Shown: in pieces, positions 24,185 to 64,000 of the stretch | How the letters are laid out: each line of letters begins with the position of its first letter | How positions within the stretch are numbered: the stretch's first letter is position 1 | Assembly (NCBI GenBank): GCA_002633005.1 | Contig: NMRA01000155.1 | Coordinates: forward strand, 745,643 to 809,642 | From: Phoronis australis | Taxonomy: Eukaryota > Animalia > Phoronida | DNA length: 64,000 nucleotides | Direction of reading: 5' to 3' | Translations under genes and position numbers: made by a program | The notes under the pieces: generated by a model | Databases searched by the model: none | The model's input: only the letters and a program-made list of their open reading frames with translations | Told to the model about the DNA's origin: nothing

Positions 24185-24479
24185 AATCGTGGTGGTGTAT
24201 TGGTAACGCACGCGCGCTCTATCCGCCAGGTCGTGAGTTTGAGTCTTAGGTACTTGCAGTTTTTCCTGTTTGACACGTTCTCCGTGTTTTTTTTGCCTTT
24301 TTTTCTTGGATAATACTTCAGGAATCAAGGAAAATGCTTGATTTTTAGAGGTAAAAAAACCCTCCTGACCTCGCCCCATTCGGTGCTATGCGCATCTACA
24401 ATCGTGGTTCAGTTTGCGCAAATGCTTACAGCCGGACAAAATGTTGGGCCCCCCTTGTGATATCCTAGATCCGCTACTG
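24185..24479 (+). mobile_element. tRNA-headed interspersed repeat ending in a hAT-like TIR (second copy at 62873-63162)
   Basis: A-box-like tggtgtattgg and B-box-like gagtttgagtc, then about 250 bp closely similar to 62873-63162, ending gatccgctactg. Confidence 0.65.
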
Positions 24480-24687
24480 CGTTGGAGCGCAGCAACTACC
24501 TAGATGCTCCCATTTATATCTGCCGTGCAAGAAGGAAATCATAGGAAATGTACGCAAATGACATTGCTGCCAATAGTTATCAGAATAAACAGAATAAAAT
24601 GATATCACTTTAAACTCCGTAACATAAGTCACTGAGGTAACACGTTGCCCTGAAGCCGAGTCATTACCATTGGAAACACCGTCTTAC

Positions 24688-27600
24688 CCGCAAGCATAAG
24701 TCCGTTACTAACTTTGAGACCCACATAAGAGCCATCTAACGAATGGTTCCCACGACGCACTTTCACTGTCCAATTCATTTCTACGGCCATGTAAACAAAG
24801 TGCGTGCGCACCTGTGAAAATAGTATTAAATACTATAATCTAACACTATTACTGAGAACTGCATGGGCTCATGTGATCGGTTTTAGGCGTGTTCACTTTG
24901 TCTCATCTTTACTACGGCAAAAATTCCGTTCAAACAAAGGTGTTCACGGGCAAATTGTGCCTCACAGTCCTCTTCCTTCGTTCATTAAATGCATTTTAGT
25001 AATAATACAGTGTTAAGTGGTAAGTAGCTGCGGAACCAAGTGAGTCATGTATTTTGGCAAGTGTTTCGTGAACCTTCTTCCTAATTAACTATGAAGCAGG
25101 GGTCCCAGCACCCTGCATTAGAGTTGCTTTGGCTCACCATGGCGCTTCCAAGTACTGGCGACACCTTCAGTGTTTTCCTTCCTGCTGTCACTGCCACATC
25201 ACCCCTTTCGTCCTGGCATATTCGTACGCCGTTTACTACGACAGTGAGTCCGTTGACAGTCGGATAAAATCTGCAAGGAAATAACACTGAACACAGAGTC
25301 AAATAACACTACATTCCCTGTTGACAAGCTCCTCGTAAGCCCTGGATTAAAGCCAACCATATCGTATATTATCAATTGTGGATTTTAGAGAATGAGGTAC
25401 GCAATTCAATTATTGTTGGTGCTCGGAAACCTATCCGCCGATTTTGTTGTGGATTCGTCATAATAGATTGGGTGCAATAGTTCGACCACAAGGTGCCGCA
25501 ACTGCACATACTGTTACAGTCTTCAAATTGTGACTTTTTGTGCAAACCTCCAAGGCACAAACGATTTGCGACTTTCGGAAGTAGCTCAAACTGTCGTGCA
25601 GTTTGTGAAGTGCTTCTGACCAAAGCACACCTTGCTTCAGTATACACAAACACAACGAATTGGTGCAGTGACGGAATACGTGTCCGGAATGCAGCTTGGG
25701 ATGGGTGGTTTTCAGCTGCTCGCCCCATGAAAATGGACTGTGATAGGGGCAGTGGCTATAATAGACATTCATACGGTGTCGACGATGAACAGAACAACTG
25801 CAACGATAGACGTTGGTACTCCATTTTTAAACAACGTAAAGATGTGCCTTTGGACGGTTGTTTCCCAAACTACGACGTTTTTGTTTGGCGAAGGTCTGTA
25901 CAAACAGTCGTAATTTGAGGGCTATGACAGATTTGTGCAACTCCAAAACCTCAACTTGTTTCAACAAAAATTACGACAAATGTGTTTAACATTTAAAGGC
26001 GTGCCTGGACAAACGCTCATAATTCAAAGTCGAATTATTGACGCAAAATTGAACAAACAACGTCACCGGTCACAGTCCGACTCTGCTCGCAGATCTAAGC
26101 CCGGCCCACTTGATAAATGGCAAAGTATTTAACCTTAATTAACAAGTAGTGTTTTCGGCCTTGATTTCAGCAAGTGGTTGCATGCAGACAACCGCGAGAG
26201 TTGGCGAGATTTTAATCACAAATGACAACGGATTTGGTTTATAGCTCTCGTTGAAGCTAATAACCTCAAGAAGTATATAATGGTGTTGTAATCGACCGGT
26301 GGTCCTGACAGATCACTGGACTAGAGAGTCTGCACGGGCAGCAAGAAGTCTTGGGTTCGAACCCCGGTCGGGGCCGAGAACGTTTCAGACTTAACCATAT
26401 GTTGCGTGATATATCACCAACATGTGGCCTGTATGAAGACTTACAATTATTGCTTAACTACATGAAGTCTTTCCTTCCAACAATAATCCAAAAAACCTCG
26501 AAACCATGTGTATTGCACTCGTTCATTCGAGTGCAACGAAGTCACCACTGTTCAATCCACGAGTGACTCCAGAAGTCGGTGACAAAGCACACTCGTATAA
26601 TATTTATCAGATCTGAAAGTGTCGGTGCAAGTGGTGTGACAACCAAAACTCTCGAAGCAAAAATATATCCGTTAATACTTACATTTGTTAAGTCGCGTTC
26701 GGAGGTGCTATTATTAAAATCTCTTGGTCTATTTACACCGACCTCTTGTCTACTCACACTCACGACGTTTCGGTCAGTCTATTCTCCGGCGTGTTCCCGC
26801 GTTCTTAGAAGAACGAGCACGGATATGTGGTACACTCATGGTGTGAGTTTTTTTATCCGAGGCAGGAATTGAATCCACAACTTCTGAAACTACAGATAAT
26901 TCGAGTGGATGACTCCGTGGTGTAGTGCTGGACTCGAATTATCTGTAGTTTCAGAAGTCGTGAGTTCAAATCCTGCCTCGGACAAAAAATCACACCATGA
27001 ATGTACCACATATCCGTGCTCGTTCTTATAAGAACGCGGAAACACCTGACGATGGCCGAAGAATAGACTGACCGAAACGTCGTGACAGTGTAAATAGACA
27101 AGAGGTAGGTGTAAATAGACCAAGCGATTTTAATTATAGTAACACACCACCACCTCAGAGCGGTTTTAGAAAGTCGTTCGGAGGTGCCACCCTCCTCCCA
27201 AGTCTCAAATCCTCGCTTTAAGAAATCGGTGTTTAGGTACATTTCGATGCCGTTTGATTGATTTCTGGCAAAACATTACCATATGCCCCCAAACAGATCT
27301 AGATAGACTCATACCCGTATGCTGACTGCAAATTATCTAGGTAAATGCTTCTACTCTATTGTGTGAACGAAGCCCAATAAGTTTACCTGGAGGTTTGCAC
27401 CATCTGTTCGCAGTTAGGTACTACATGCTCGCCGTATCCTTGCGAAGAGTACAGAAGACTGACGGACCGATCTGCCGTCATATCCGAGAAGCGATTGGGT
27501 GGAACGGGCGTCACTTCCCTCCCTCTGATGCAATAGCAAAGAGAACCTGCGTCACAGATAGTGTACATGGATGTAGGGTGCATATTCCAATCGAACAATA

Positions 27601-28521: not shown

Positions 28522-31500
28522 GCTGCCGCTGCCGCTCTTGCTGCTGCGGCAACGGTAAGAACAAACTAAACCCATGCTTTCCATACAAGTTTGTGCCTGT
28601 GCCACACTCAACTTTGGATAAAAGATGTCAAATAAAACAACAAAACGGCTTATTACCGGACCATATACTCGGGATAAACATTCAAATCGTGGCGTGCACA
28701 CTGATCTCCACAGACATGGATTTCTGCGTGTCGATTGTCCGCCTTTCACTCTGCCAATCTCCTCCGGAGGTGGCGATGAGTTAGACAGTATTCCAAAAAG
28801 AAAACACGACGATCACGTCAACAACATAATTGTTTGTCACTGTTAAGACCGTGTAAGATAGTTCGATAAAGGCAGCGCCACCATGGGGTAACTCTTCGCG
28901 CATAGTGCTCTGCTGATAGTTCTCATTAACCTTTTGCAGACTGTACGTTTGTCTTCGAGGTACACTACTTACAGGCCACATTCGAATAATCGACTCTGTA
29001 CAATACAGTAAAAACTGACGATATGGTGTTTATGTACATGTATTATCTATAGCCTTTTGAAAACGCAAAACAAGCAAGCTAGTCAATTCAGCACGTTTCC
29101 AAATACAGTGTAAGTAGTCGATACAGTAAGAGAACTGACATTCAGTTTTCACGAAGCCGACTTTGTGCTTGGCACCCGGGGCGCGGCTACCATTAGTCAC
29201 AACGAGGCACGTGTAAAATGTTTTCATTGGTCGAAGCATTGGTTTTGTTTTCAGTAGGAAACGCAACAAATGGAAGTAAGTAGATGTTAGCAAGTAAATA
29301 AAGGCTACCTATATGGTAAATGCAGCTCGAGTTTCCACGCGCGTTGGTCGATGCGACAGCTTTGTGGCGATGGTTGACAACTCGTATCGTCTTGTCTAAC
29401 GTCATTTCCACCGATATGTCGTACTTCATGATCACCGTCAGTAGTCCATTTGGCGAAACGTAAATGTAGGGATGGCTTTGCGGAAAAGACATGACGTATC
29501 CCATCGACGGCTGTGGCATGGGTGCCAGAATTCTGGGAGAGTTTGCCGTCAACAGGCCGTGCGAACCTTGAGCTAAAAGAGCATGCTGTTGGCTGGTCAA
29601 TTGATTGGGGAGTTGAGTCCAGCTGGACACTTCAGTAGCACCATTCTGAGAATATGAGCCTTGGGGTGGTTGCGGCACAAACATGTTGAACCGACGATTG
29701 ACCACGCGGTCAAAATTGCTAAGCCCAGAAAATTTTGTCTGTGTGTCGAAGAAGGGAGAGCTTGGTGTTGGACTTGAAAACATCCCTGCGTAGTCTGTGG
29801 GTGTGGCTAGCGAGAACGGAGAGGGCACTCCTGGCGGAATGAAAGAGTAACCGTTCAGAGGAGGCACCGGGCCACCGATAACGTAAGGTCCTGCTGGGAA
29901 CGGGGTACAAGAAGTCTCCAGAGACCTTTGGGATTGTTGCTTGCTAAAAGTTGGCCACTCAGGTACAAGCTGATCCTTTGGACTGTCGTCAGGTCTCCTG
30001 TTGTTCATGAATCCGAAGATACTCGACATTGGTGTAGGAAATAGTTCCGAAAACGGTAGCGGCTCGAAAGACACCGCCTCCCATTCCTCATTAATCTCAG
30101 TCTCCACCTTCTGCGCACTTTTGTCGTCGTCAGATCGAGGCTCTGTCATAATTATTTGGCCTTCAGTTTGCGTGTTCGCTGTTCGTGAGGTTGAAGAGTC
30201 ATCCTGACGAAGGTCTAACTGTATCCTCTTTTCAAATTCAAAAGATTGACCTGAATTCTGTTTGGTATCTGTGTCAGCGGTTAGTTCGCGAGATTGAAAT
30301 GGCTTACTGTGAACTATTCTTGGTTGTTGGAATAACACAAAATCACCGGGCTGAGTATCATCAGACCAGTCTCGAACTCGACGCGGGTTACTCTGTGGTG
30401 ATGCCTCTGTCTCCTTGCACGTACCCATGTATCTTAAAGCAAAAACACCGTCGTTGGTACTTCCTACTCTGTCTGACAACTCAGTTTTATCACTGATGCT
30501 TTCAAAAATATGTAATGTCATTTTTCGTTAGACCAATTAGACAAAGTCCAATCTACTCCACACACTGACGCAGTGAAATGGCCTATGCATTTCAAAAACG
30601 GTCCTTTTATTCATAGCTACGCTTATAATGTTAAAGCGTCATTAAACCTGTGCTTCAGTCACCGTTATACAATTGGTATTGTTTTTTCCGTACTCAGTCT
30701 GGAAGTTATCTTTGGGTCACGTAATATGAATCTTGTTAGCTTGGTCTGAAGAAATAATGAATTGCTAGTCCTGAAATCACCTCCAATAAGGAGCATGTGG
30801 AGACCAACTTTAAGGCGGTGAGCCTAAATCAAACTTTTTTTACATAAGGCACGAGTTCAATGCCGCTTTAAAGTCCCACCTGCGTCGTCATTGAAAACCA
30901 CTGTAAAGTCTGGTTCATGTTTCGAGTGGAAACACTTATTTTTATTTTTAATGGGGCGGTACGTCAGCTTTTTTAAAATTCCACATGACGAAATCATGGA
31001 CTAACTGTAATGGAATCATTTATAGCTTAAACGGGGAGATTTCACATATCAAAGTGAACAATTCCAGTTGCAAATCTTGATGTCGTTTACGTGAGCATGT
31101 AAAACAGAAGATTACGATTATTTTCAGCACTGCATGAAGAATCCTAAACATTTGCGCAAGGCCCATGGTTTTATGATCTTCAACTGTCCATTAGGCAAAA
31201 ACTTAAGTTTTAGGTCCATAAGTAGATTGGGGAAAACACAACCAAACGTAAAAAAAAGCCTGCCAAACGTATTGAGTACTCTGCGAACATTTCTGCCTTC
31301 GAAAACTGCGGTTTTCTCCACTCGCTGCGTCATAGACACTCCTGTGGGGTTTGGCTCTTACCTACATGCTGTGTCACTGATAGCTCTTCTGTCCAAGTCG
31401 AGGTCAAGCTGTTCTCGTGGTTCCACGAGAGATTTTGTTTCCGGCAAGTAGACGAGATCCATGCAGTTGACGCTGCCACCAGATGTCTCTGAGCCCGTTG

Positions 31501-36949: not shown

Positions 36950-38132
36950 ATTTTAAATCAGGTTTTAGTGTCCAGTACTTCGACTGTTTAACGAAGCTCA
37001 GTTTTTGCCCCCCCCCCCTGACAATCACTTCTGGAAAGATTTTTTTGAATGTGTAATCTCCTTTGGAAATTGTTTGAAGATCAAACATCAGATAGATTTT
37101 CTTAACCAACCTTTATGGTTTAGCAAAGATCTGCAGGCAGGAGGAAAATGTATTTTCTACAGGAACTGGTGCAATAGAGGCATACTCTTTATAAAGGACT
37201 TGTTTTCCCCAGACGGTAATATTTTGAACTATAGATTTATTGTGGATATTTAGGTATCAAAACGAACTTTATGGAGTACATGTATAATAATCCAATTTCA
37301 GTGATATCTAGGTCCCAACAGAAATGTGGTATTGATAGAGTTCTTAGTTTTGATGCGTATTGTCCTTTTATGCCAACGATTTTAATGAAACAGAAAAGTG
37401 GTGGGAGAGGGTGTCAACATATCTGTACACAATTAAATTAAAGTTCCGAAGTCTCAAAAGCGGAGTCAAAATGGGTCAACGAACTGAACGTAAATACAAC
37501 TAATTTTTCGTGGGAAGATGTTTATTCCCTTCCATGTAACACAACAAGAGACCCAAGAATTAGGTGGCTTCAGTTCAGACTCTTGACGAGAATTTTGACT
37601 ACTCTTTTTTAAAAATAATCCAAGTTACGGATGACGACTCTTGTTCCTTTTGTGGACAATCGAAAGAGACTTTGAAACACTTATTTTGGGAATGTGAAAC
37701 AGTAAATTCATTTTGGACAAGAGTTAATAATTAAATTCTAAACAAAGCAAATCCCCAGTGTGTCGGCACTCTTTCCTGCAACAACGTTATTTTGGGGTTT
37801 TTTGATAAAAACAAAATTTTAAAAACATTGTTTTATTATTGGGTAAACAGATTATTTAAATCCAAAAGTTTGGATCAAAAAGATTACTTCTAAGTATTTT
37901 TTTTAACTTCATCAAAGAATATTATACGAGTGAAAAGTATAATGTTCGTAAGGATTTGAATTTAGAATTCATACAAACAAGATGGTGTAACTTTGAAACA
38001 GTTTTTCTTAGCAGTCAAGAGGATTAGTTATGGGTATGCGTGTGTGTGTGTGTGTGCGTGTCTCTGGTGTTCTTTGTCTTTTTGTGATATTGTAATGTTT
38101 TTCTCATTACCAATAAATATATATTTAAAAAA
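36950..38132 (+). mobile_element. 5'-truncated, decayed L1/Tx1-clade LINE (ORF2 C-terminus + 3'UTR)
   Basis: NHFWKD..NQPLWF..WCNRGILFIKDL; IRWLQFRLLTRILTT; CSFCGQSKETLKHLFWECETVNSFW (CCHC zf-RVT); then (TG)n, AATAAA near 38112 and a short A tail. Stops and frameshifts are present. Confidence 0.88.
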
Positions 38133-41108: not shown

Positions 41109-44100
41109 GTTGACTAGTTTAACTAGAAGTATACAAAATGCTGTTGTTGGTGGTAGTGTTGATCAGGCTTATGCAGCAAAACTATTGAATTTTGCTAGGA
41201 GGTTAATGGAGGAGGCAGATCAAGCTGCATATGAATCAAGTGACCATCATTGTTTGCGTATTGTAGTTTTGACCTTGTAAATCTATTGAATGAGTACTAG
41301 TAATATGATTACCTCTTTTTAACACAGTGTAATTTTAACAATTGAACCGATGCTTATTTAAGGTACCAGCATGTCACCTTTACCTTGAGATCCTTCTACT
41401 GTGGGTAATAGCAGGTTATTCCTATGTGCATGACTAGGTGTTCAGTGCTGCCACATTTATTGCACGAGTTAATACAGAACTTACGGATGACTGGTTACTG
41501 AATAATTAATACCAAAAACCTATTTGAAAATGATTCCATGCAGATGTCCCTCCTTTCACATGACCAAAACGCACCTGTGTGCATTTCAGCGTGATATTGT
41601 TTACGAATATATGTGTATTTGGTATCCTGTAACTGGCCATATACCAAAGCTCTCTATTCTTATGTTTAACATTTCAGTGAGTGATGTGTATTACATGTGA
41701 AAATACATGTACATTGCAGGGGCAACGATATTTGGGCAAAATCAAAGTTTGACATAACCTCATCTCACTTAGAGTGTATGATAAAGGCAAACTTCACACG
41801 ACAAGAGATGGCCGAATCAATGCGAGTTACTTCCTCTACCATATCACGTCGACTGAAGTATGTAATAATTTCATTGCCACTGTTCAAGAATTGACACTGT
41901 CTCCTGACTAGTGCTTAAGCTGCTACCAATTTGATAGACAGGGCTTTTAATTAGTGGTGATTAATGCAATTGTATCATTTTTGTGGTATAGTAAACAATC
42001 TTTAGATTGTTTCTGGTAAATCTCATCCATTGAACATTGGAAACCATGAATTGCATGATCCTACACGGTATCATGTACAGAGTGTGGAAATTAGGTGAAA
42101 TTCAAGATGGCGGAAGCCGCCATCTTGAACTATAAAAAATGCTCAAAGTTGCACAAAGTGCAACCAAGTTACTTTTATTCTCCTAACCATATATAATAAA
42201 TTTCCAAAAGAAAACTTAACAGTAAACAACTTTGCAGGGTCAACTTTTTGGCAACTAGACTACTGCTTTTCAACTTTTTGGCAAACTGTGTCAAACCCCG
42301 TTAAACAGTAATAGTGCAGTTACTATCCCTATTTGACACATTTTACATTTTGTATTTATGTAACTGTTAAGCAATCACTTGAAGTAGTATGCACACTCTT
42401 GACAGTTGTATCCTAAAGCCACGCATGGTGCATAGGCTTCGACGTTAATATGTCGATGTTTCTTCGTCCTCAGGGAGTATGCCAAGTCTTCAAGACAATA
42501 CAATGAGGTTGCGGACTCACAACTAGACTCAGCTGTTGGAGGCACAGTTGGTTTGTATTGTTAAATTGCACTTCAAAGTTCAACTAAATTATTTATCAGT
42601 GGATTATAATTACCGTAAAAACCTGCAAATAAGCGCATGTGAAACAAGTCAATGCATTTTTTGCCAAACTTTCCTACTCAAATCTTCCGCACATATATGT
42701 GGAAGCTTCGTAATTATGTGCATGCGAGTCACCTCATACAGATGCAACATGGTGCTCCGATCTTAGACCAACTCTTCTTGTTTGTGAAAAAACACTATTC
42801 CACCCAACTCTGGGTGTAACAAAAATAGGAGTAATTGTCCAAAAATATACCAAAATCGTACTTTTATCTTAAGTCTTGAATGGGCATTGAGAAAACTAAA
42901 GTACGATGTGCATTAATAGTTCGACCATCATAATCAGAGCAAGTTCTACTTAAATGTTGGAGGCACATGTGCTCAGTACCAGGCTGAGGAAAACGAACAT
43001 ACCAAATGACGTGCGAGACAAGATTTCATGTAGTCTGCTCCAAAAATGAGCCCTGTAAATGTGTTGTTTACTTTCAATATGGTTCTCAAGATGTTTTCTG
43101 AAACAGAACACTGGAACGAAATGCTTTTAATGTGATGTTAAAACATACATACGATGTTTATGTCAATGAGAAAAATGCATGCATGTGACAGCAGTAATTT
43201 TAAATGCATTTAATCTAGCCTCAAGCTGTGAATTTTCATGTTATGTTCTCTATAGTGGAGGTACTGTTTGTTCTTTAATCAGAATTGTCATGAATGCTTT
43301 GAAAAATGGAATGGAACTGTCAACTGTATACAGATGCTGCTTAAGCCCCTGTCACATTCGTGGTATGATGCTAGCAGGGCAACAAAAATGCTGTTGTACG
43401 ATAGTCTTCTGTATTGACATATTCGCAGTCACATTTGTTGTAGAAATGTCCTACGACATTAAAACAAGGTGTTGCAAGACATACACGTATTGTATGCCTG
43501 ACATACAATGATATGTAGTCATATTTTTAATGTTCGATGGTCCCAGAGCATGTACGTGATGGTAAAACGTTTGGGGGACTGCCGGTTGTCCAGTACGATT
43601 GTAGGACTATTCTAGACTCTCGGATAACCCAAAGATCGTATGTCAGTCGTACAACTATCATACAACAAATGTGAGGCATCACACCACAGTGTTACGATAT
43701 AGATCTGTTGTAGAACTGTTGTACGACGTTGAAATGATTTTGAACAAGTTCAAAATTTCCCGACGCTGTTCTTGGAATGCAATGCGGTAAAATCTCACTA
43801 ATTTCAGACCATAATAATTGCCAAAACCGTCCATTTTTATGCGCCCACATATTTATGTGCGTCCACATCTGTATCTCCTAAACCCCTCACAGGATCTTGA
43901 ATAGATTTGGTAGATGTGTTTCTATGAAGCTGACGACAGATGATGACGAATTTCAGACCTATCCGACTACCGGTGTGCCCCCTAGTGGCAATTTTATTTT
44001 TTACGCTTATTTCTATATCTTCAGAGATCCTCAAATGATTTTCATAAAATTTGAAATATAGGCATCTATCAATGAGATGACGCTAACCTCTCGTTTTCAG

Positions 44101-46200
44101 ATATATTTGCGGTATTTTGAACCACCTAGTGGCCATTTTTGTTGTCTTCGAATCTGTTTTTTGGCGTCTGCCCCTCTATCAACCAAACTACTCCAAGGAT
44201 GATTATGAAAATTGACATATAGGTTGTTACTATGACGAGGACAGTTGACGATGATTTTCTGACGACTTCAACTACAGTGGCGCCTCCTAGTGGCAATTTT
44301 GTTTGTTTTTGTGCCCATGGCTGTATCTCCTTTACGCTATGCAGGATCTGTACTAAATTGAGGTAGTGTATTTGTATGAAGTCTACAACAAACGATAACG
44401 GCTTTCAGATGGATCGGACTATCGGTGTGCCCCCTAGTGGCAATTTTTATTTTTTATCTTCACCTCTATCTTCAAATGTCCTCAACGGATTTTCATGAAA
44501 TTTTTCACATGGGCTTCAATTTAGTGGTATGACACCATTTTCCGGCAATTTCATTTTTTTCATTTTCTTCTGTTTCTCTGAAGTTCCTTGATGGATTTGC
44601 ATGAAATTTTGTAAATAGGTTTCTATTAAAGAAGCAGTGACATTTTCCTATTTTGTTATGGGTTGGACATATATTGCGCCATCTAGTGGCAATTTTTACT
44701 GTTTTCTTGTCTATTTTTGGCGTCTGCCCCTCTATGAACCCTACAAACCACTCTAAGGATGTTTGTGAAAGTTAGCCCATATGTTCTTAGTGTGAAGAGG
44801 ATGGTTGACCGTGTTTTTCTGACGACTTCACCTACTGTGGCACTTTTGTTTTTTGCAGGCATAGCTGTACTCTCCTAAACCCACTGCAGAATCTTTATGA
44901 AATTTAGCAAGTGTATTTATGTGAAGTTGACTACGGACGATGATAACGATTTTCAGACGGATGTGACCAATGATGTGCCACTTGGTGACAATTTCATTTT
45001 TTCTGTTTTCCTCTGTTTCTCTGAAGTTCCTTGACGGATTTTTATGAAATATGATAGCTTTCTATTAAAGACCTGTTCCCGTTTTCGGATGACTTCAACG
45101 TATTTTGCGCCATCCAGTGGCCATTTTTCTGATAGAAATAAATACCCGTCCCTTAGAAGCACTTCATTTTCTGAGCATTTGTGGGCGCATTTCAACGCCC
45201 TGCGTTGCTCTTGTTTATTTTTAAAGGCTTCTAATTTTGTGAATGCTCACAATTTTTCAAAACTTTGTTTGATGGTAGCTATGGTACAAAACTTGAAAAT
45301 GAGAAAGCAATAGTTTGGGGATACTAATGATCTATGCAAAAAGCAGAAAATAAAACGTCAGTTGTGTGCCATCTGATGTCCCAAATGTTGTACCACGATC
45401 TCTTCACTATCATTATTTTCCCTAACTTCTGTCGCTGACACATCATATACTGTCCCGTCATACGACAAATGCGACGGGCTTAAGTCAGCTGTAATTTCAC
45501 CTCATGTTTTCTGCTTATTTGTATAAAGGTATTTAGTGGGTCACGAATGATCAAGTTTCATCTATAATTTCTGATACAAAATAGTAGCCCCTGTGAGACC
45601 GAGTGCTTTAGTGCAGTACTGCAAATGTGCTTACATGGGATGCCACAAATGTTTGTTGCTAATGTGCATATCACATTTATAATATTAAATACTAACTGTT
45701 CAGAAACATGGCTATATTTTTCCTGTCTTATATACACTATAAGTACATCTTTTGTTTTAGATACTGGAATAGACAGTGGCACTCGGTTCCTGGTGTATGG
45801 GAAAGCATTCTTTAACAACTGTTCTACAACTGTCCCCGATTGCTTTCAAAAAACGGTAATGAAGTAAGGTGTACATTCGCGAGTTAGATGTGACCATGGT
45901 GCATTCATGGAAATGTTCCATGGTCTGGACAGAGGGAGTGCCATTCAAGGAATAAGTGTGTACAATCAGAGGATAGAAAGACTGTGGCGAGATATGTGGC
46001 GTGGTGTCACCAATGTGTACCATGAGATGTTTCATTTTTTAGAGGAGAAACGTGTTTTGGATCCAGATGATTAGCTGTCCTTTTGGTGCTTGCACTATGT
46101 GTTTTTACTCAAAATTAGTCAATCATTGAAAGCCTTTAAGGTCCATGGAACCACCATGGTTTGTGAACAGAGAAGGGCAAGTCATCATACAGGCTGTTTG
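41109..46200 (+). mobile_element. Decayed intron-containing transposase with HTH + rve-like integrase core (IS3EU-like)
   Basis: HTH exon at about 41720-41858 (KFDITSSHLECMIKANFTRQEMAESMRVTSSTISRRLK). Small exon at about 42474-42550 (YNEVADSQLDSAV). Core at about 45530-46200 (GIDSGTRFLVY..NNCSTTV..SRVRCDHG..RGSAIQGISVYNQRIERLWRDMW..LHYVF). Stops and frameshifts are present. The superfamily name is tentative. Confidence 0.75.
43834..45215 (+). mobile_element. Helentron-like non-autonomous element (HINE/DINE-1 architecture) with internal ~450-550 bp tandem units
   Basis: Starts in a T-run with sub-TIR atgcgcccaca (43839). The matching tgtgggcgcat (45180) is followed by the hairpin caacgc-cct-gcgttg and ctcttgtt. 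Repeated ctagtggc-containing units lie inside. Confidence 0.7.
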
Positions 46201-46796: not shown

Positions 46797-47067
46797 CCAT
46801 CCTAAATGACATTCTTGGTGAACTGCCAATAATAACTTTCAAAGATGAAAACTTATTCATTTATTGATCTGGGCACCAAAAATTGAAGATGCATACCATA
46901 TACCATATTACTGCCAAACTCTATTGATATATAGCATGTGTAAAGATTAATAATGTTTCCTTATTCGTAAAATTTTAACAATTTTTCCTTGTGACTTAAC
47001 TTTGAACAGACTCCTGTAAAACTGGGACTTGTTACTGTGTATAAATATATATATATATATATATATA
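46797..47067. repeat. ~270-bp repeat ending in (TA)n; inverted copy at 51336-51619
   Basis: cctaaatgacattcttggtgaactgccaataataactttcaaagatgaaaacttattcatttattgatctggg is the reverse complement of about 51542-51615. Confidence 0.85.
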
Positions 47068-51335: not shown

Positions 51336-51384
<49 letters not shown>

Positions 51385-51619
51385 AACTGACTGTCACATT
51401 AACAAGACCCAGTTTTAAAGGAGTCTGTTCAAAGTTTAATCCACAAGTAAAAATTGTTAAAATTTTACGAATATATGCTATAATTCAATAGAATTTGGCA
51501 GTAATCTTTCTCGTATATGGTATGCATCTTCTATTGTTGGTACCCAGATCAATAAATGAATAAGTTTTCATCTTTGAAAGTTATTATTGGCAGTTCACCA
51601 AGAATGTCATTTAGGATGG
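51336..51619. repeat. (TA)n(CA)n microsatellite + inverted copy of the 46797-47067 repeat
   Basis: Reverse-complement match read directly from the sequence. Confidence 0.85.
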
Positions 51620-53500: not shown

Positions 53501-56164
53501 AATTATATGTGCAGGGACCTATTTCTTCGGGTGAACTTGGTCCTAACCCAATTCTGTTCTATGGGAATTCAATTAGAAGCCAAAAAGTGTGAGAGATCGA
53601 CCGCCCGAGATTTTAGTACGCGATGTACCATTTTACTTTAGCTATAAGCACTTGCATGAGTAAAGTTCGACCCTCAACTGAACATTGGTATAGCAAATAA
53701 CCAAGAGACATGATTAAAAGACACGCGTAAATGCATATGCATGGCACCGTTTGGATGCCTGTCATGAACCAAACAAGACATTTCTATTTAGACTTTTTGT
53801 CCGGCTACGGGATACTTTGCTTTGAGGTATAATAGTTTTACTCTTAAAACATTTTGAATTTGGTCCTAGAGTTTTAACCTTGAACTTGAAATTGTTTTGG
53901 AAAAGTTCGTAATGGTTTCAGTCATATACCAGTTAACCGACTGAATACCTCACCGAGTCCTAAATCTTCTAATGGTCTTTGCTAGTCCATGTAATTTTAC
54001 AAAATCCGCCTATTAATTCCCGAGTGGCCAAATCCTCCTTCAAAACCCGGCAATCTGAAAGTTACAATTACTAACCAATGCAATGTCTTGGGGGCAACTA
54101 GTTGAAAAGTGCTACGTTTTTGGACGCCATGCTTGAACTCTAAAATTACACCAAGGGCAAAGAGCGCATGCGACTAGTATGTCAGCGTACCCGGAAGTCG
54201 TGTGCTTCACGAAAGAGCAGGAGAAGTCCAGGGTCACTGGAATCGAGGATTTTTGCCAAAATGAAAGCAAAAGAAAGCAGTTCACGTAACTGAATAAAAT
54301 CATTTTTGAGAAAAAGCTTTGAACAACTGTTGAAGCATTTTGGGATATAAGTGTGTGTAATTTTATCCATTTTATTAATGCTTCATATGTCGTCGATTAT
54401 GTCACTTATAACCATAGTTCATAGACAACAGATTCGCAACTCCGACTTTTTCATTTGAGAGAAATTGTCAAAAGAGGTACCACTTTCCAGTTAATGAGCA
54501 GACGACATATTTGTCGGAAGTAAAACCGTGACTACCGTGACTCAAACAAGGCGCCGTTAGCGAACTGTCTCTTCTCGGCATGGATACTGTTGGTCGCGCT
54601 TTGTGTGTACGATCACAGATTTTGTCCATTGAGGACATACAGGCTTGGCGGTCCCGGTTCTATGCCGATCCAGTCTATGCTTTAACGCACAAACAAGCCG
54701 GCTGTGCGGGTATATGTTGTGCGACGTGTCGTAAGATTTTACGTGCATACTGCGGGCTCGCAAAAAGTGTAAATATTATGTTGAGACGCGCCGCAAGTAT
54801 TGTTCTGAAATGAAACACCCCTTTTCCATAGTTGCCCGAAACACATTTTTCTTTTTTTTTGCTGTGGCAGATTGTCTCTCACATTTACGCTTTCGCGTAT
54901 ATAGTGTATCTGTACATGAGCTCTGTTACTTGTCATTTTTCATGACGTGTGTCTTTACATCTCAACTACACATTTGCTGCCCACTGTAAACGAGCTTTGG
55001 AACCGCTTCCCAGTTGGCGCACATAAATATGATTTGAGTGTTACAGTATATTCGTTATGACGTCTCTACTTGCTTCTCATTTTTATATTAAGGTCGCGTC
55101 AGTGCACCAATCTGTGTGTTTATCTATTGGCCTATGTTATATTAGGTCAAGTGGTTTCTGTGTCTTACTTTTGTTTTCGCATTGGATGGTACTTTGCGAC
55201 TCCTGTTTTTACTATGTCCTCAACCCTCCCTTACCTGTCATCTTTATTTTTACGTTATTCTCAGTATTCATTTTCTCTACTTTTGGTTAATCCAGTAAAT
55301 GCACGTCTACTGGCAGATTGTTGGTTAACGCATTTAAATGACATCTTTAGTGTGTTAAGCAGTCTCAAACTAGTTCATGCCTATGTGTACAGATTGGTTC
55401 AAAACGCGCTGATCTACAGATACAAATAGACTCCTACAGTACTCATCACCCGGGATTCAACACAACCAACGTCATGATAAAAAGCAACAGAAATACTTCA
55501 TCGCATATATTTCAGTCGTTTAGCTTTGTCATTGCCCAAACTAAGCCTCCTTTGCAAACGACGTCATCGCTGCGAATGTGAACACATCAAGCACCTAAAC
55601 CAAACGTAATCAACACCCTACACCTAACTCGAAATGATAAATAATGTGAACTTAAATACACAGTCCATAACAGATCAACAGTATTGCCCGGTTGTTTTCT
55701 AGGCTTTAGGTACGGGCTGTTTCCATAGACCCTATTTGGTACATATATAAGAGATGCGGTATGATAGGTTGCTCTAAACTTATGCAGATACTAATTCGTC
55801 GTTGTCAGCACGAAGTTCGCGGACTTCAGTAACAGTATGCATATGAGCTAGACAATTTTTGTACTCACTAGTTTCCCTAGGCCTGAAATAGTGTATTTTT
55901 CAAAGAAAGTTGTTTACTCAGGTGTTTTGCCTACAGGCGCACGCACCAAAGTTTCGGTTGTAGGCACAGGTGGACCTCACGCATTGTCCTCGGCAAAAGC
56001 GCATAATCGTGCCCGTGCGAAACATTCTTACGCGACATTGTTTGACAGTCCATTTCCCAGATTAAATTATATACGATCAGTTCTATTAGTGTCCGTTGTA
56101 AATATTTATGTACCTAGTAGCAATAGTAGGTCCAGTGAAACAGAAATGTAGCTTTTTACTCGGA

Positions 56165-56802
56165 CTATTCGACAACAGTCTTCGCTATAATCTGTTTTTC
56201 GTCTCTCATCATGGTGTAATGGTCACCATCAACGTCAACAACTCGCACTGGTTTAGAGCACAAACGTTGGGTGCCATAGTCGCGCTCTTGTTTTTGAAGC
56301 TCAGCAAGAGTTTCAGATAGCGGTCCTTCTGTTAGTATATCAGTTGCAAGTACCAGCTTGACGTCTCCGTCGTAAATGGTGGAAGGAACGTAGGAGGCGT
56401 AAATATTCAGAGTTTCTCGAAACAGTGACAGTCCAACCTTCAAATCGTCTTCGTTCAAGCCTTTTTCATTCCAAGTGTTTTGAAGCCATTTCTCGTGAGC
56501 CTCCATCTGCTTTTCGGAGCTCTTCAAGATTCTCGTGTATGCTTTTGCGATTAAATCCGGACTTCCGTCAAGAATAACTAGCGTCTCCGGTCTCCGGGCA
56601 ATCTTTTGAAGCTGCAGCGCAATTTCAAAAGCTATAGCCCCGCCTGACGAATATCCAACTAGAACATACGGGGTTTCAGTGTAAAAGAAGTCCAACTGCT
56701 TCATTCGCTCTACATACAGCGAGGCAAGTTGAGGAATTGACTCGAATGGAGTACTTCCAAGCAGAAAACGGAAAGCAAACACCGGGTGCTTCTTCAGTTG
56801 GC
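56165..56802 (-). CDS. NRPS terminal exon: thioesterase domain (animal FAS-TE-like)
   Basis: Acceptor tcttccAG at 56803 is phase 1, matching the donor at 57474. GYSSGG nucleophile elbow, LDGSP and GDH give the Ser-Asp-His triad. Stop TAG at 56165-56167. Confidence 0.93.
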
Positions 56803-57474
56803 CTGGAAGACACGTAATTGCGTTAAAGAGGTACACATACATCGACAAAACATCTAAAATGCATAGGCACAAACACGTGTCACTGTTCAAAGGGGGCATG
56901 AATTATTGTCCAAAAGAACTTCGAAAAATTTTGGCGGTCACCAATCAAAACACGAATTCGAAATTTTAAGTAAGGCTTGATTAATTTTGTGCACCATGGT
57001 ATAGCATTTTACCGTGACAATGTGCTCGTTATATATGGAGTACACTTTGGAACGACGTCATATATCATGTAGCTTCCCTGTGTTCGATGGCTGTAACACG
57101 TTCGAGAACGTAGCAGTTTTAAATTACGAATATCTAATCACTCGAAATAACTGTTGTTCATGTATTTAGATCGTATTAATTGATATTTGAATTCACGTGC
57201 TAATTTTAGGGCAGTGGCTCTGAAGGGAAAGTCATATGAATATTCTGATGTTATTTGTACTAAAAAATATCATCAATTACCTCAAGACATATTGTAGCGC
57301 ACAATCAAGTGTACCCCTGACCATTACATAACAAGCTAGGCCTATTCAACATTAATAAAGTATAGTAACTGGCGTTACCGCCGTATTTGCGAAATTAAAT
57401 GACAGATTAAACTTATATAAGACTAACTAAAACATTGGCTTTCCCGTTAAAAGACAAAAGTGCACTATACTTAC

Positions 57475-60400
57475 CAACAACGTAAGAAAACGACGATACC
57501 CCACCGTCACTGGCGTGAATGTAGATGATAGGTTTTTTGCCGGGATCGCCGCTGCTTAAACAAACCAAGATGTCGCCCTCGTCCGCCTTTAATTCGGCAA
57601 CTGCGGCTATTTCTGCTAGTGTTTCGAGCTGCACTACATCCGACAGGCTAAACTGTAGCCCCCGCTTTTCAGCCATAGATACCAAGCTAATTGCTGATAT
57701 TGAGGTGCCACCGAGATCAAAGTAAGAATGGTCAAGTTTTATGTCGCCTGAGTTCATTTTCAGGAGTTTTGCCCACATGTCACGAAGCATCAATTCCTTG
57801 TCGGTCAACATTTCCATGACGTCACTGTTACCTTGCCACGATTGTTTGGATTCCGTTTGCCAGACCTCCGACGGTACTTCGGTTACTTCTTTAAGAACGT
57901 TTTTACTGACAACGGTGAAGTGAACTGGTAGAACACACACTGGTGCATGTGCCCTTCCAAGTATCGATTTGAGATCCTGCAATGTCTCAGAGGGCATGGG
58001 ATACTCGGAGGTAATGAAGGCAAATACACCTTCATTAGTTTCTGAAATAAAACAGCCTCGCAACCCTTCAATCCCATCGAGTTCCTCTGGTATTGAGTTG
58101 ACTTCGTGATCCAAAACGATTGTTACGTCACCGTTAATCTGCGATGCTGCAAGAACACCAGTGTAAACCACGTCATCATCCTTGTTGATTTGTATATGCA
58201 ACTTCCCGATAACACCGTTTGGACAAGATCGACCATGTTGATCTTTAATGCAGAGCGAGTATGTCACGTCGTCAGTTAGTGGACTTCCGACAATGGTATG
58301 TTTAGCGTCAATCTCGGCATGAATCACTGGTTTTGAGCTATCAGAAAGGAGTATCTCATCTAAAAGAATGTTCAAGTGAGCCAAAATCTGGTGGGCTAAT
58401 TCATTGCTGACCCTATTTGCGTCGTACATGAACTTAGCCATGAGATATTCGCCGTCGTCACCGAAAAGAACTCCCAAAGGCAAATCGATGTCTTCATATC
58501 CATGGATTGCAGAAAATTCGATTTCTTGGTCTTTGAAGTTTTCAAACGCTGGGTAATTTTCGTATGTAACCAGAGTATCAAGCAGATTCTGATTTCTTGG
58601 AAGACCGCTCCATTTCCGTATGTCAGCTAAATTGCTATAATCATAAGCCATTATTGCAGCTTGATTTTCGTGGATGGTCTTCAGCCATTCTATAATAGTT
58701 ACTCTTTCGTCAGAAGGCAAAGTTATGCGAAGTGGCAAGGTGTTGAGCAGTAGACCAACTACATCTTCGACTCCTTCAATGTCAGCACTTCGCGACGCGA
58801 CTACAACAGCCACGACTACGTCTTTCCTATGGCTACTGCAATACCGATCCAAAACTAATGCCCACGCGCCATACATAACAGAGGTCGTCGTTAAACTGTT
58901 TTCCCTTGCAAATTTCTTCAGAACTTCCAGCTTTGTAGAAAATGTACGCAACACCTGCTTGGTGTCACTTTCAGAGGATCCCTGATTTGTCGACAACGTC
59001 AAGATTCGCATTGGTTTCAGATTTGACAAGTACTGTGACCAGAAAGTTTGTGCAGCGGACATGTCACGGGATTTGCAATTTTCCACAAAAAAACGAAACG
59101 AAGTGGCGGGTGGGAGATCGTGAGCGTGATAAACTTTTAAAACGTCTCTGAGGACGAGCGGAGAAGACCATCCATCAACAACTGAATGATGGAAGGTCCA
59201 AATAAACTTGTGGATGAACTCGCTTGTTTTCATTAGAGCAAATCTAATTAGAATCCCGTTTGCACTGAATCCCTTCGCCCTATCTAAGTTTACAAAACCA
59301 CTCTCCGTTTCTTCAGAATCAATCCAGGATCCCACTTCCCATTGAGGATCAGACTGGCGTCTTACTATTTGAATCAAAGAATGGCTTCCGGAATCAATAA
59401 TAAAGCTCGTTCGCAAAGCTGTGTGACGTTTAATAACGATACTCCAGGCATATTTGAATCTTTCAACATCAAGCCTTCCTGTTATGTTTAAACATAATTG
59501 CACTAAATAGGACGACTTGTCTTGAAGTAAAGAAAATATTAACCCTTCTTGCAGAGGTGTACACGCGTAAATATCTTCCACGTCGTCCAAACTGATATGC
59601 GCTACTTTCAATGTATCTTCCATTGTCTTCACTTTGTTATCATCAGTTTTCAAAGGCATATCAGAAATTGTGCAGCTAAGCTGAAGTGACTCCAAGATAT
59701 TTTCTGTTACTTTCTTCCAGGATTGTGCCAATGATTGAATGGTTTTAGTCTTGTGAAGGTCTTTGCTAAAAATGAAGACGGCTTGAAGGCGTCCCTCAGA
59801 AATATAACACTCAATAGCCAACATGTGAGTGATCTTTTCGTACTTACACTGGTTGTTGTAAGTGTAATTGCCGTTTGTGCAAACATCCCACAGGCTATTC
59901 TCCTTAGAGAACATCGTGGCACTCCCGTGGTAATTGAACACAACGTCACTGTGTTGGTTAAACCTTGGATCATTGTCCTTTTTCAAGTACCTCATAGCGC
60001 CGTACGGCATACCGTTATTAGGAATTCTTTGAAGTCGTCGTTTTATTTCTTCAAGGTGTTCCAGTAAGTTGTCTGTATGATTTTTCAAAGCCAATGTGAC
60101 AGGAAACATAGCAGTGAACCAACCGACAGTTCGAGAAAGATCGAGTTTGTCAGTCCAAGGTTCTCTCCCGTGCCATTCTTGCTCAACAGTCAACGATGTT
60201 TCTCCGGTCCACTCATAGTAAGCAACAATTAAAGCAGTCAAAAGAACGTCGTTAATCGAAGGGCTATCGTTCCCATGAGTCCTTCTAAGACTCAGTAATT
60301 TGTTTGTTGTATTTTTGTCTAGCTCTATTGATTCAAGCACACGACTTGCGCTTTCGATGCTTTCCATGCTTTTCGAAAAATCGGTTTTTAAAGGACTGCT

Positions 60401-62875
60401 TTGTTCCAATGATGGCCAATCATCTGCATTGAGGCTTGGAGTATAGTCGGAAATCAGAAGCTCTGACCATTCTTTGAATGAAGAAGTTTTTGGTTGCAGG
60501 GAGCTTCCGCGACATAGTGTTTCGAGATCTTCCAGAATGATTTGCCAAGAAACAAGGTCCACAGCCAAGTGATGGATAGTTATGAACAGATACTGCCGCT
60601 GGCCAACAATGTCAAATAGACCAATCGCCAGAAGGGGACCAGATGTTAAATCCAATGAATTTTGAAGTTTCCCAAGCTCATCGTCCAGTCGGTCTTCATC
60701 AATTTTCGTGTGAATCAACTTTGGCGTTCGAGCTTTGTCACATGGTTGGATTTCCTGATTCGCACTCCCACCTTCTTTAAAAGTGTATGAAGCGCGCAAA
60801 ATATCGTGATGGGAGATAAGTTCATGAATGGCATTTTGGAGGATTATTGGGTTAACGTTCAGCAATGGTCTTAGTAGTAGTGACTGGTTGAAGCAATTGC
60901 GATTACGAAGGTTTAAGTTGACAAACCACTCTTGAATAGGGGTGAAGGGCACATTGCCCGATATCTCCTTGTTGTTCTTCTTGATGGTAGATTTTTCAAC
61001 ACCGACAAACTTTGCAAAATGTGCAAGCTGAGACAGGCTTCTGGACTGGAATACTTGTTGTACTGTAAACCGAAGTCTGCGTTTTCTTCCCTGAGAAAAT
61101 ACTCTCATGGCAGAAATAGAATCACCACCCAGAAAAAAGAATGAGTCGCTTGACTTTATTTTTGATGGTTCGATTTGTAGAACCTCACTCCATATTTCGA
61201 TCAAAATTTCTTCTTTTTTAGTCAGTATCTCGATGTCACTAACACTGGGTTCAGGCAAGCTTTTATAGTCAATCTTTTCTGAGCTTGACATAGGAAATTC
61301 TGACAAAGGAACTATCACTGATGGAACCATATAGCGAGGTAGTTTGTCTTGTAGATTTCTCTTCAGTTGAAAAACGCCAGCACTTCCTATGTCTGGTGTT
61401 ACGTATCCCACAAGAACGTCATTTTTCACGACAGATGCTGCGTTTGAAATTCCATCCTGCATCCTCATAACATGCTCGACTTCATCGAGTTCTACACGGA
61501 AAGCTCTTAATTTAACTTGCCTATCTTTGCGACCTGCCACTATAATTTCTCCATTTTCAGTCCAAGAACCTAAATCACCCGAATTGTAAAGTTTTCCCTC
61601 GCCAAAGGGGTTGTCGATGAATTTCTGTTGTGTCAAATCCGGCCGCTTTACATATCCTCTAGCAACCCCATTTCCGCCAAGGTACATTGTACCTTTCACT
61701 CCGATGGGGACTGGCCTTAAGTTGTTATCTAAAATGTACACTGAGCAGTTGGTAATAGGTTTTCCAACAGTAACTTTGGAGTTTCCATTTGTCAGCCCCC
61801 AAGTACACACAATCGTTATTTCTGACGGACCATATTCATTGTAGAGCTCTACGTGCTTCTCCCACTTATTGACTACAGACTCTGGGAGTATTTCGCCGGC
61901 GACTATCACCCTTTTGATATTTGGAAAATCACTAGGTTCCAGAGAGGCAAGCACAGAGGGCGACATCAACGCTACGTCAACTTTCTTCAAAGTATGAAGA
62001 AAGTTCTTTTCTCGTTGAACCAGTGTCGCTCCACTGGTTAAAGTCATTAGCATCTCTTGATAAGCGACATCAAACATTATGTTGAAAAAGTGTGTTACTC
62101 TTGTTCCATGAGTGATACCGTACTTTTTGCATGATCTAGCAATCAGACATTCACAGCCCCAATGATTAATCATAACCCCTTTGGGTTTCCCTGTTGTTCC
62201 TGAAGTGTATACAATATATGCCAGATGTCTTGCATCAGAAACGTTTTCCAAATTGGCGTAGTCATTATCATCAAATGCATCACTTTCATAGCGTGTAGTA
62301 TACTTTTGTAAATCAACCAGCACAATTTCCCCTTGAAAGGAATCGAGAACTCCTGTTGATTTTACTTTGCTTGTGGTAACAACTACTTTACAACCGGCGT
62401 CCTCGAGCATCAAATCAACACGACTTTTCGGAACAGTCGCTTCAATTGAAAGGACTGCGCCGCCAGATTTCATAATTCCTAAGACAGAAGTAACGAATTC
62501 TAAGTTTCTGTCAAATACAGCGCCGACTATAGCGTCTGGAACGATCCCAAAAGAACGCAATATCCGTGCCAATTTGTTACAGGCTGCGTTTAAGCTTCTG
62601 TACGTTATGTGCCTTTCAATTTCTTCAACTGCAATACTGTCTGGTACAAGCTCTGCTTGTTGTTCAAATTGCTGGTGCATGCGAAGCTTGCAAAAATCTC
62701 CCGTCCTGTTAAACGATTTAATAAGGGCTGACTGACATGGTGGTAGCAAGTCTAAAGAGCTAAAAGGCGTGTCTTGGTTTGATGTTAGCACATCAAACAA
62801 GTGTAACAAATTGTGGCTCATTCTTTGTATGGTAGAACGGTTGAATATATCAGTGTTGTATACGAAATAAACCCG
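57475..62875 (-). CDS. Nonribosomal peptide synthetase, main 5.4-kb exon: [C end]-A-T-E-C-(vestigial A)-T-TE start
   Basis: C-end: YNTDIFNRSTIQRM. A: YTSGTTGKPKG, FDV, NEYGPSE, SGDLG, GRKDRQVKLR, KIDY. T: FFFLGGDSI. E: PIQEWF, HHLAVDLVSW, EWHGRE, RTVGWFT, FNYHG. C: EDIYACTPLQEG, HHSVVDGWS, YENYP. T: YFDLGGTSI. TE start: PIIYIHASDGG. Donor G|GTAAGT at 57474. The frame is open 18 codons upstream of the ORF-track Met. Confidence 0.96.
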
Positions 62876-63162
62876 CTAGGACGTGAGTTCGAGTCTTCGA
62901 CAGTTGCATTTTCTTCCTGTTTGACACGTTCTCCGTGTTTTTTTTGCCTTTTTTTCTTGGATAATACTTCAGGAATCAAGGAAAATGCTTGATTTTTAGA
63001 GGTAAAAACAGAAAAATTTCCTGGGCGGGAGGGGGCAAACCGCCCTCCCGACCTCCCCCCATTCGGTGCTATGCGCATCTACAATCGTGGTTCAGTTTGC
63101 GCAAATGCTTCCAGCCGGACAAAATGTTGGCCCCCCCTTGTGATATCCTAGATCCAACACTG
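62873..63162 (+). mobile_element. 5'-truncated copy of the tRNA-headed/hAT-TIR repeat; left part of the insertion in the NRPS
   Basis: Closely similar to 24222-24479; B-box-like gagttcgagtc; ends gatccaacactg. Confidence 0.75.
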
Positions 63163-63937
63163 TGTTAATGCTTGTATTAATGAGCTTAACAAGCTTGCAA
63201 TTGAAAGAACCGTCAATATACGCTGGGTCAGGGCCCATGTGGGAATTGATGGTAATGAGAATGCAGACAGACTCGCAAAGATAGGAGCAAGCGTTCTGCA
63301 TTTTGTGCCTGAACCTGCTATCCCGGTATCTTACGGATGTTGCAGGATGAGTATACGCAACTGGGTACATACACAGTCATCTTACGGATGTTGCAGGATG
63401 AGTATACGCAACTGGGTACATACCCAGTCAGCAGCCCAGTGGGCATCACTTAACTTCTGCAGAGAGACCAAGGAGAATTTTCCCAACGTGATTGAACCAA
63501 AGGTTCGAAAAACTATCTGAGTCTAGATAGATTGGGTATAAGACACGTCAAATTTTGACGGGCCACTGCAACCTAGCCCGACACAGACATATTACTGGGC
63601 ATATGGGGAGTCCTGTTTGTTTTGAGTGTGGTTTTGACGTAGAATCTCCTAAATACGTGGTAGAGTCTTGCCCAGCTTTTTATAGGCTAAGGAGCAACCT
63701 ATTGGATGGCACTGTTACATGCCTAAAACATATAGTGCATGGCAACAAATGGAAACGTCTGTCCGTTTTCCTAAAGGAGACTGGCAGACTTGAAAACTTT
63801 CTTCACGGGGGAGCCCTAATTGAGCTCTCGTGCTTTTGCTCAGGTGTTTTGTGCAATGGGCCAAACCATGAGGCCTGCACACGTCTGATGCAAATGACAT
63901 CAGACCACCTGCACTGTTTTTTTGTTTTTTTAACCCT
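63163..63937 (+). mobile_element. 3' fragment of an RNase H-containing non-LTR retrotransposon (I/Loa-like)
   Basis: WVRAHVGIDGNENADRLAK (RNase H); LTGHCNLARH..CFECG..CPA (C-terminal zinc-knuckle region); FLKETGRL. It has two frameshifts and a 51-nt tandem duplication. Confidence 0.88.
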
Positions 63938-64000
63938 AATAAACTCTGAACTCTGGTTTCAATGTTCTTGTTGGTAACAGAAACAGAATCCTATCACAGT
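63938..64000 (-). CDS. Probable upstream continuation of the NRPS condensation domain beyond the insertion
   Basis: The open frame CDRILFLLPTRTLKPEFRVY joins VYFVYNTDIF in frame through the duplicated aataaac. Only about 20 codons are visible. Confidence 0.5.

Follow-up and report, generated by a model that had tools for sequence, protein, structure and literature searches.

A total of 199 clusters of non-ribosomal peptide synthetase (NRPS) genes are reported in 86 animal species of 7 phyla, and the survey that counted them leaves their origin unresolved (PMC10531068). The same source describes an ACV synthetase (ACVS) with a terminal epimerization (E) domain in springtails and in the nematode Plectus sambesii. 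The NRP/PKS gene copies of bdelloid rotifers match mainly bacteria (PMC11258130), and the mollusc FmtATR is a single-module enzyme (PMC11869996). Nemamide, the product of nematode PKS-1/NRPS-1, contains a D-Asn of unidentified source, and its adenylation (A) domains are without homology to microbial ones (PMC8363725). Here we analyse an NRPS gene at the end of a 64,000-nucleotide stretch of the phoronid Phoronis australis (assembly GCA_002633005.1, contig NMRA01000155.1, positions 745,643 to 809,642), referred to as the window. An original prediction, made by a model from the letters of this stretch, had named few characterised animal NRPS-like enzymes; with the 199 clusters in 7 phyla, the E-bearing ACVS and FmtATR, multimodular NRPS loci are reported from animals more widely than it listed.

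We consider it probable that the window holds the 3′ portion of a multimodular NRPS gene that is spliced, transcribed and very likely the animal's own, that the body of this enzyme is of fungal lineage, and that it makes a predicted short peptide with a D-residue. The domain order is ...C-A-T-E-C-A°-T-TE, where C stands for condensation, T for carrier, A° for an A-domain remnant and TE for thioesterase. The parts of the gene, in the order of transcription, are as follows.

61247 to 62680, minus strand: complete A domain (A1, aa 66-543), with Lys534, a proline-like code and a 9-residue deletion
61016 to 61222, minus strand: carrier T1 (Ser586), from Pfam and profiles
59696 to 60958, minus strand: E domain, His769, Asp773, Glu900 and Tyr982 kept, with Trp901
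58352 to 59584, minus strand: condensation domain C2, D-donor (DCL) type by profile scores, catalytic motif intact
57905 to 58306, minus strand: A°, the C-terminal third of an A domain only, without P-loop, substrate Asp or catalytic Lys
57599 to 57805, minus strand: carrier T2 (Ser1725), NRPS type, from Pfam and profiles
57475 to 57544, minus strand: last part of the large exon, read from the sequence as the start of the TE
56803 to 57474, minus strand: spliceosomal intron, 672 nt, GT..AG, phase 1, with spliced reads
56165 to 56802, minus strand: last coding exon, TE with Ser1852, Asp1879 and His1995, most similar to the TE of animal fatty acid synthase (FAS)
55243 to 56164, minus strand: 3′ untranslated region (UTR) of about 0.7-0.9 kb, covered by an X5 contig to 55243 and by stranded reads to about 55450

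The reading frame (62875-57475 joined to 56802-56165, with residues numbered from 62875) comprises 2012 codons and a single terminal stop. Pfam recognises in it an AMP-binding domain, a thioesterase, and two each of carrier domains and condensation-family stretches, and TIGR01733 matches above its cut-off. Profiles made from homologues place A at aa 66-543, T at 552-620, E at 640-1060, C at 1098-1508 and the second T at 1691-1759. A, T and C domains follow one another along the protein and retain their catalytic residues. The length of about 2000 uninterrupted codons and the domain order had been predicted correctly; the frame is not intact at its 5′ end, where the sequence from 62869 upward belongs to a mobile-element block and marks neither an exon nor an intron boundary.

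Transcription was assessed in X6, X7 and X8, stranded RNA runs of one study, and in X5 from another study, presumed to be RNA; X1 is DNA. The RNA figures rest on 18-19% of each of X6 and X7. Among the runs listed as containing the stretch none is recorded as RNA, and expression is judged from the aligned reads. The gene is spliced, transcribed and eukaryotic: 17 reads in X6, 10 in X7 and one X5 contig join the exons across the 672-nt intron, at the GT-AG borders (57474-56803) that the original prediction had given. A minor second donor at 57012 is used by 2 reads in X6 and 3 in X7, and this form would stop ahead of the TE core, yielding a TE-less product. Stranded coverage of the coding region is 5-45x in X6 and X7, in the expected direction, and 615 (X6) and 598 (X7) reads on 3.9 kb correspond to about 12-14 reads per kb per million. 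In X8 coverage of the gene is below 1x, yet the adjacent repeat is covered. Molecules of X5, X6 and X7 lack 34 nt of the 3′ UTR (56027-56060) and carry one additional letter where the ends meet; an allelic deletion is more likely than an intron.

Alignment with GrsA gives A1 the code Asp-Val-Gln-Leu-Ile-Ala-Glu-Ile-Val-Lys. Val236 together with Gln239 marks proline-activating A domains (PMC12283262). The A1 pocket has Asp235, Val236 and Gln239 as such domains do and differs at Glu322; the closest of 979 A domains agrees at 6/9 positions. The likely substrate is proline or a proline-like residue. T1 has an Asp before its carrier serine, as do 439 of 443 carriers that precede an E domain, so the signature that the original prediction had named fits; it is not diagnostic, being found also in 192 of 385 carriers before a C domain. 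The E-type sequence lies between T1 and a DCL domain, its core His, Asp, Glu and Tyr are present and the neighbouring core positions agree with the consensus. Glu900, which we take from the TycA and GrsA literature to be the catalytic glutamate, is conserved in 440 of 446 E domains. With its catalytic residues intact, this domain is a predicted epimerase. For C2 the DCL profile scores 367 bits and the LCL profile 300 bits; the classifier was right for 60/60 held-out domains following an E domain and for 49/60 others, and C2 scores as D-donor type. An E domain with its His and Glu in place and an odd Gly-to-Trp change, followed by a D-donor C domain, was thus rightly predicted.

A° lies in a 180-aa spacer and was recognised by a weak hhalign match (E 4e-4, 126 columns to positions 302-467 of the A profile); blastp gave no match for the region among the 395 proteins compared. 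Remnants of comparable size occur in other NRPSs, where 18 of 810 C-to-T spacings measure 61-350 aa. By its missing parts, A° is a dead remnant with which no activation would be possible, and the last module has no complete A domain where every elongation module might be expected to have an active one. Modules without an active A domain, loaded iteratively or in trans, are described in non-linear NRPSs (PMC8949500).

The TE appears to differ in kinship from the rest of the protein. Its exon scores 45 bits against the TE of human FASN, mammalian FAS TEs being the best match for both halves, and at best 23 bits against NRPS TEs in the PDB and 35.6 bits among 407 proteins compared. A model of the TE (pLDDT 83, built on 13 microbial-type TE-bearing rows) has the FASN TE as its top Foldseek match; by Z score the FASN TE is tied with an NRPS TE, and an ESM search returned mostly bacterial clusters. 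Of the 33 relatives from fungi or oomycetes, many of which are incomplete, none has a TE of this kind. The probable source of the TE is the FAS family of the host, a kinship judged by scores and model comparison. In the fungal relatives P0160, P0223 and P0159 the last domain is not a PF00975 TE but a serine hydrolase that by eye resembles FSH1.

We propose a model in which an upstream module or starter, beyond the window, would pass its chain via the first C domain to the residue loaded by A1 on T1. The E domain would invert that residue to the D-form, likely D-proline or a proline-like residue near the C-terminal end of the peptide, and the D-donor C2 would join it to an acceptor on T2. Because A° cannot activate, T2 needs another source of loading. 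Reloading by A1 is the foremost candidate, if a tentative one; loading by a paralogue or an upstream A domain is possible with somewhat less confidence, and a role of T2 as relay carrier only is rather unlikely. The TE would hydrolyse or cyclise the product, and the phosphopantetheinyl transferase (PPTase) of the host's FAS may prime the carriers in trans, as was proposed for springtails (PMC10531068). It had been predicted that no tailoring or PPTase genes lie nearby; these families were indeed absent from the 150 frames examined at 30500-56164, out of 167 that measure 52 aa or more, and from 143 of 211 such frames at 1-30500, a search that short exons would escape. The D-residue peptide of the original prediction remains a predicted product, and the suggested lipopeptide has no support here, as the start of the gene lies outside the window. 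It is tempting to speculate that a domesticated or ancestor-retained NRPS family of fungal/oomycete lineage, with a TE of the host's FAS family swapped in, makes a D-proline-type peptide in particular tissues or stages, and we put this forward tentatively.

For each domain the top matches are NRPSs of Basidiobolus, chytrids, Calcarisporiella, Dimargaritales and Aphanomyces, with best identities of 25-42%. Homologue searches and a representative search gave no close relative (best identities 25-38%), and metagenome and genome scans, able to detect close relatives only, gave no confirmed relative locus. Maximum-likelihood trees were built for three domains. The A tree has 30 eukaryotic rows and 32 others, chosen among the top 110 of 979, the E tree 17 and 28, and the C tree 12 and 26; the other rows are named bacteria or unnamed metagenome proteins. 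In all of them the phoronid gene and the fungal/oomycete rows split from the bacterial-type rows at 100/99, with the C-tree bootstrap not fully settled. A site-mixture tree of A-T-E-C (8 and 14 rows) recovers the same split on a long branch (SH-aLRT 100), and the phoronid gene is sister to the fungal/oomycete rows at 90. It forms a deep separate branch, sister to that group, in the E, C and concatenated trees, a deep position in unrooted trees whose rows include no other animal NRPS. Deletions tell the same story: the 9-residue deletion in A1 is shared with 69 of 70 fungal-lineage eukaryotic A domains and found in 12 of 909 others, which fall among bacterial-type rows away from the phoronid gene, and two deletions in E are shared with 22 of 29 fungal-lineage eukaryotic E domains and found in 6 of 417 others. 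Trees and deletions alike join the NRPS body to the lineage of early-diverging fungi and Aphanomyces, from which it probably descends, with bacteria not directly closest.

Being unrooted and without further NRPSs from animals, the trees are compatible with three routes. An old eukaryote-to-animal transfer has about an even chance; inheritance from an opisthokont ancestor is considerably less likely, and so is a shared donor among bacteria as yet unsampled. The original prediction had proposed a probably horizontally acquired assembly line in the animal. The gene is indeed eukaryotic and very likely the host's own, and its nearest lineage is early fungi and Aphanomyces, not bacteria. In all three domain trees the Aphanomyces domains (P0195, P0399, P0400) are nested within those of chytrids, which suggests a fungus-to-oomycete transfer within the same NRPS family.

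A gap of 476 N separates the NRPS stretch from the animal-type genes of the window. Two repeats on the NRPS side, 62873-63166 and 51370-51619, recur beyond it (24223-24483 and 46797-47062), as the original prediction had noted, and both lie gap-free with the gene, which they flank. The second is the following:

51370 to 51619, no strand assigned: second host repeat, 82% over 273 nt against 46797-47062

The NRPS stretch is present in 4 DNA runs of one study and in RNA runs of two others, all under one species label, and the four DNA runs contain 54-59% of the words sampled from it. As its transcript is spliced and host repeats adjoin it in unbroken DNA, the gene is very likely encoded by the animal host. 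Differences between reads and assembly were sampled (10/509 and 40/258 rows). Among 50 coding differences 22 are synonymous, against 22-29% expected, with pN/pS of 0.36-0.52 (p 0.0005-0.016) and no stops; a common indel at 59634 is 3 nt long and in frame, and a 1-nt deletion at 61261 is seen in a single contig of X1 and in 1/14 X7 reads. This pattern, from a small and biased sample, fits purifying selection on the coding region.

The copy of the gene in the assembly is interrupted at 62868/62869. Three features meet there.

62816 to 62868, minus strand: C-terminal stub of the upstream C domain, aligning to the C-domain ends of homologues, with loose ends in X1, X6 and X7
62869 to 63166, no strand assigned: interspersed repeat, breaking the upstream C domain of this haplotype, 83% over 294 nt against 24223-24483
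63152 to 63977, plus strand: decayed retroelement fragment within the interrupting block, an RNase H piece (PF00075) followed by broken frames

Three X6 reads, 12 X7 reads and a DNA contig of 752 nt from X1 depart from the assembly at 62868, and they continue with 30 nearly identical letters in all three. Translated by hand, these letters form ten in-frame sense codons that resemble C-domain ends, with the Gly-x-Leu-x-Gly spacing that precedes the same stretch in homologous C domains. RNA reads near the joint have almost exclusively these letters, which differ from the window's. The joint has no AG and a DNA contig contains the joined form, so it is not a product of splicing; and since RNA reads and the DNA contig extend in frame, the real gene is longer than the copy in the window. 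The expressed alleles are uninterrupted at 62869, and the intact alleles extend 5′ of the stub. On the simplest reading the window copy is a mobile-element insertion allele, the alternative being an assembly misjoin. The RNase H match has an E value of 2e-8 at 63152-63517, and reads over the retroelement fragment carry many indels; an Rfam search with the interspersed repeat gave no match. An intron acceptor at 62876-62877 had been considered and was ruled out, as the reads leave at 62868 and the DNA contig has the same continuation. A transcription start near 62802, where 5 of 14 X6 molecules end, was set aside on the same evidence.

Contigs about 90% alike, and loose ends reading as additional A and E sequences, are seen in X1 and X6 and point to paralogues or further modules. 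At 60091-60178, 61581-61624 and 62055-62097, reads or contigs match short conserved stretches only and then continue in an open frame. These partial matches are additional E and A domains from this organism, and one is expressed in X6.

Several observations weigh against a working, host-encoded enzyme for a D-residue peptide. One is the residue after Glu900: among 446 E domains it is Gly in 370 and another residue in 76, and Trp in none. Trp901 also stands in the X1 contig covering 60000-60339, the 3 listed differences of which lie at other positions. An animal NRPS might then work with an inactive or rewired E domain and gain no D-residue from this module. We hold this to be unlikely, as His769, Asp773, Glu900, Tyr982 and the adjoining core match the consensus, bulky residues at position 901 are tolerated in other E domains, and C2 remains of DCL type. 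The interruption of the assembly copy, the frameshift variant at 61261, a pN/pS of up to 0.5, the collapse of the second A domain and several divergent copies in X1 could instead mean that the gene was disabled recently and is decaying, or that it is a member of a family in turnover, with transcription still going on. Against such decay, about 2,010 codons are open, the 50 listed changes include no stop and show a synonymous excess, uninterrupted alleles are expressed in a sample-specific way, and A° remnants of similar size are known in other NRPSs. Decay, too, seems unlikely to us.

The closest relatives are fungi and oomycetes, and the 476-N gap stands between the NRPS and the animal genes, as would be expected if the gene of a chytrid-, zoopagomycete- or oomycete-like symbiont had been scaffolded into the animal assembly. 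Its near absence from X8 could mirror infection status. Two host repeats nevertheless share a gap-free stretch with the gene, and it is present in three studies (2015, 2017, 2026) with differences of 1-4%. The long intron and long 3′ UTR also speak against a symbiont; Mortierella NRPS introns average 102 bp (bioRxiv 10.1101/2020.08.21.262279). The best fungal protein is only 35% identical, and the TE is closest to animal FAS. A symbiont gene is therefore very unlikely. Bacterial contamination or recent bacterial transfer, for which it speaks that most of the listed homologues are bacterial-type NRPSs, is scarcely credible and already largely refuted by spliceosomal splicing; in addition, best identities are 25-38%, the scans for close relatives confirmed none, and trees and deletions side with eukaryotes. 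The preferred reading remains a transcribed animal NRPS with a predicted D-residue product.

Animal-type genes, noted on the same scaffold by the original prediction, lie beyond the 476-N gap.

7403 to 7765, minus strand: first coding exon of a ligand-gated ion channel (nicotinic-receptor-like), PF02931, E 1e-4, below the Pfam cut-off

On the plus strand, exons at 13541-17561 with weak LamG-like and PAN-domain matches are probably a single extracellular protein gene. A 444-aa frame at 29193-30527 (minus strand) is of low complexity with a conserved-looking C-terminal domain; it matches no Pfam family, and the ESM Atlas gave only eukaryote leads scoring below 0.9. Repetitive DNA includes a degenerate tandem array at 43858-45128 (units of about 145 nt), nested inverted repeats at 26708-27139 forming a palindrome of about 430 nt that resembles a miniature inverted-repeat transposable element, and transposon relics (integrase core, 45868-46071; zf-RVT, 37564-37731; a weak THAP match, 19862-20116). 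ARAGORN predicts a 96-nt tRNA-Thr-like sequence at 15321-15416 (minus strand), possibly a pseudogene or the head of a repeat.

Symbionts are usually held responsible for D-residue peptides from marine and other invertebrates. An animal gene that is spliced, sample-specific and equipped with an internal E-DCL pair offers a concrete, testable way in which the animal could produce such a peptide on its own. Its fungal kinship bears on the origin of the scattered animal NRPSs, adding eukaryote-to-eukaryote transfer or deep inheritance to bacterial transfer. If true, the fusion of a host FAS-type TE to an acquired line would be an example of animals rebuilding acquired pathways, and the interrupted allele, if real, would be a natural loss-of-function variant with which to find the product. 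Already published are NRPS loci in animals, the E domain of springtail and nematode ACVS, and nemamide as an animal product with a D-residue; new here are the fungal-lineage body, the interrupted assembly copy and the FAS-like TE in an animal NRPS.

Among known systems, the best overall match is Basidiobolus meristosporus ORX93211.1 (P0123), at 35% identity over 1,420 aa, for which synthesis of a cyclopentapeptide has been hypothesised only (PMC7466969). Other relatives of this fungal lineage come from Quaeritorhiza, Polyrhizophydium, Calcarisporiella, Dimargaris, Tieghemiomyces and Aphanomyces stellatus. The phoronid gene shares with the early-fungal and Aphanomyces NRPSs the A-T-E-C module type, a stand-alone E followed by DCL, and the A and E deletions. 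It ends in A°-T and a PF00975 TE, whereas complete-looking fungal and oomycete relatives end in C, E or another serine hydrolase. Within the open-licence literature, neither an internal E-DCL pair nor this fungal lineage was found described for an animal NRPS, and the available text of the animal surveys (PMC10531068, PMC11258130) mentions neither an E-DCL pair outside ACVS nor a link to chytrid or Basidiobolus NRPSs. Like the uncharacterised animal clusters and the bdelloid NRP/PKS copies, it is a multimodular NRPS of the antiSMASH type in an invertebrate genome, several of which occur per genome in some species, and the locus may be one of the 199 animal regions. Tyrocidine and gramicidin S synthetases (PDB 9bfd, 5isw, 9rde) have A-T-E and DCL modules with which the phoronid gene agrees in catalytic residues and, presumably, in chemistry; unlike it, those enzymes are bacterial, intron-free and about 30% identical, with complete downstream A domains. 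Animal ACVS is likewise an animal-encoded multimodular NRPS with E and TE domains, but its E domain is terminal and directly before the TE, its codes are for aminoadipate (Aad), Cys and Val, and its partner is IPNS; here the architecture is E-C-A°-T-TE with an internal E, and no beta-lactam genes were seen in the window. Nematode PKS-1/NRPS-1 resembles the phoronid enzyme in TE release, in modules without their own A domain and in a D-residue product, which is predicted for the latter. Unlike PKS-1/NRPS-1, the phoronid enzyme has a canonical E domain and a readable A code.

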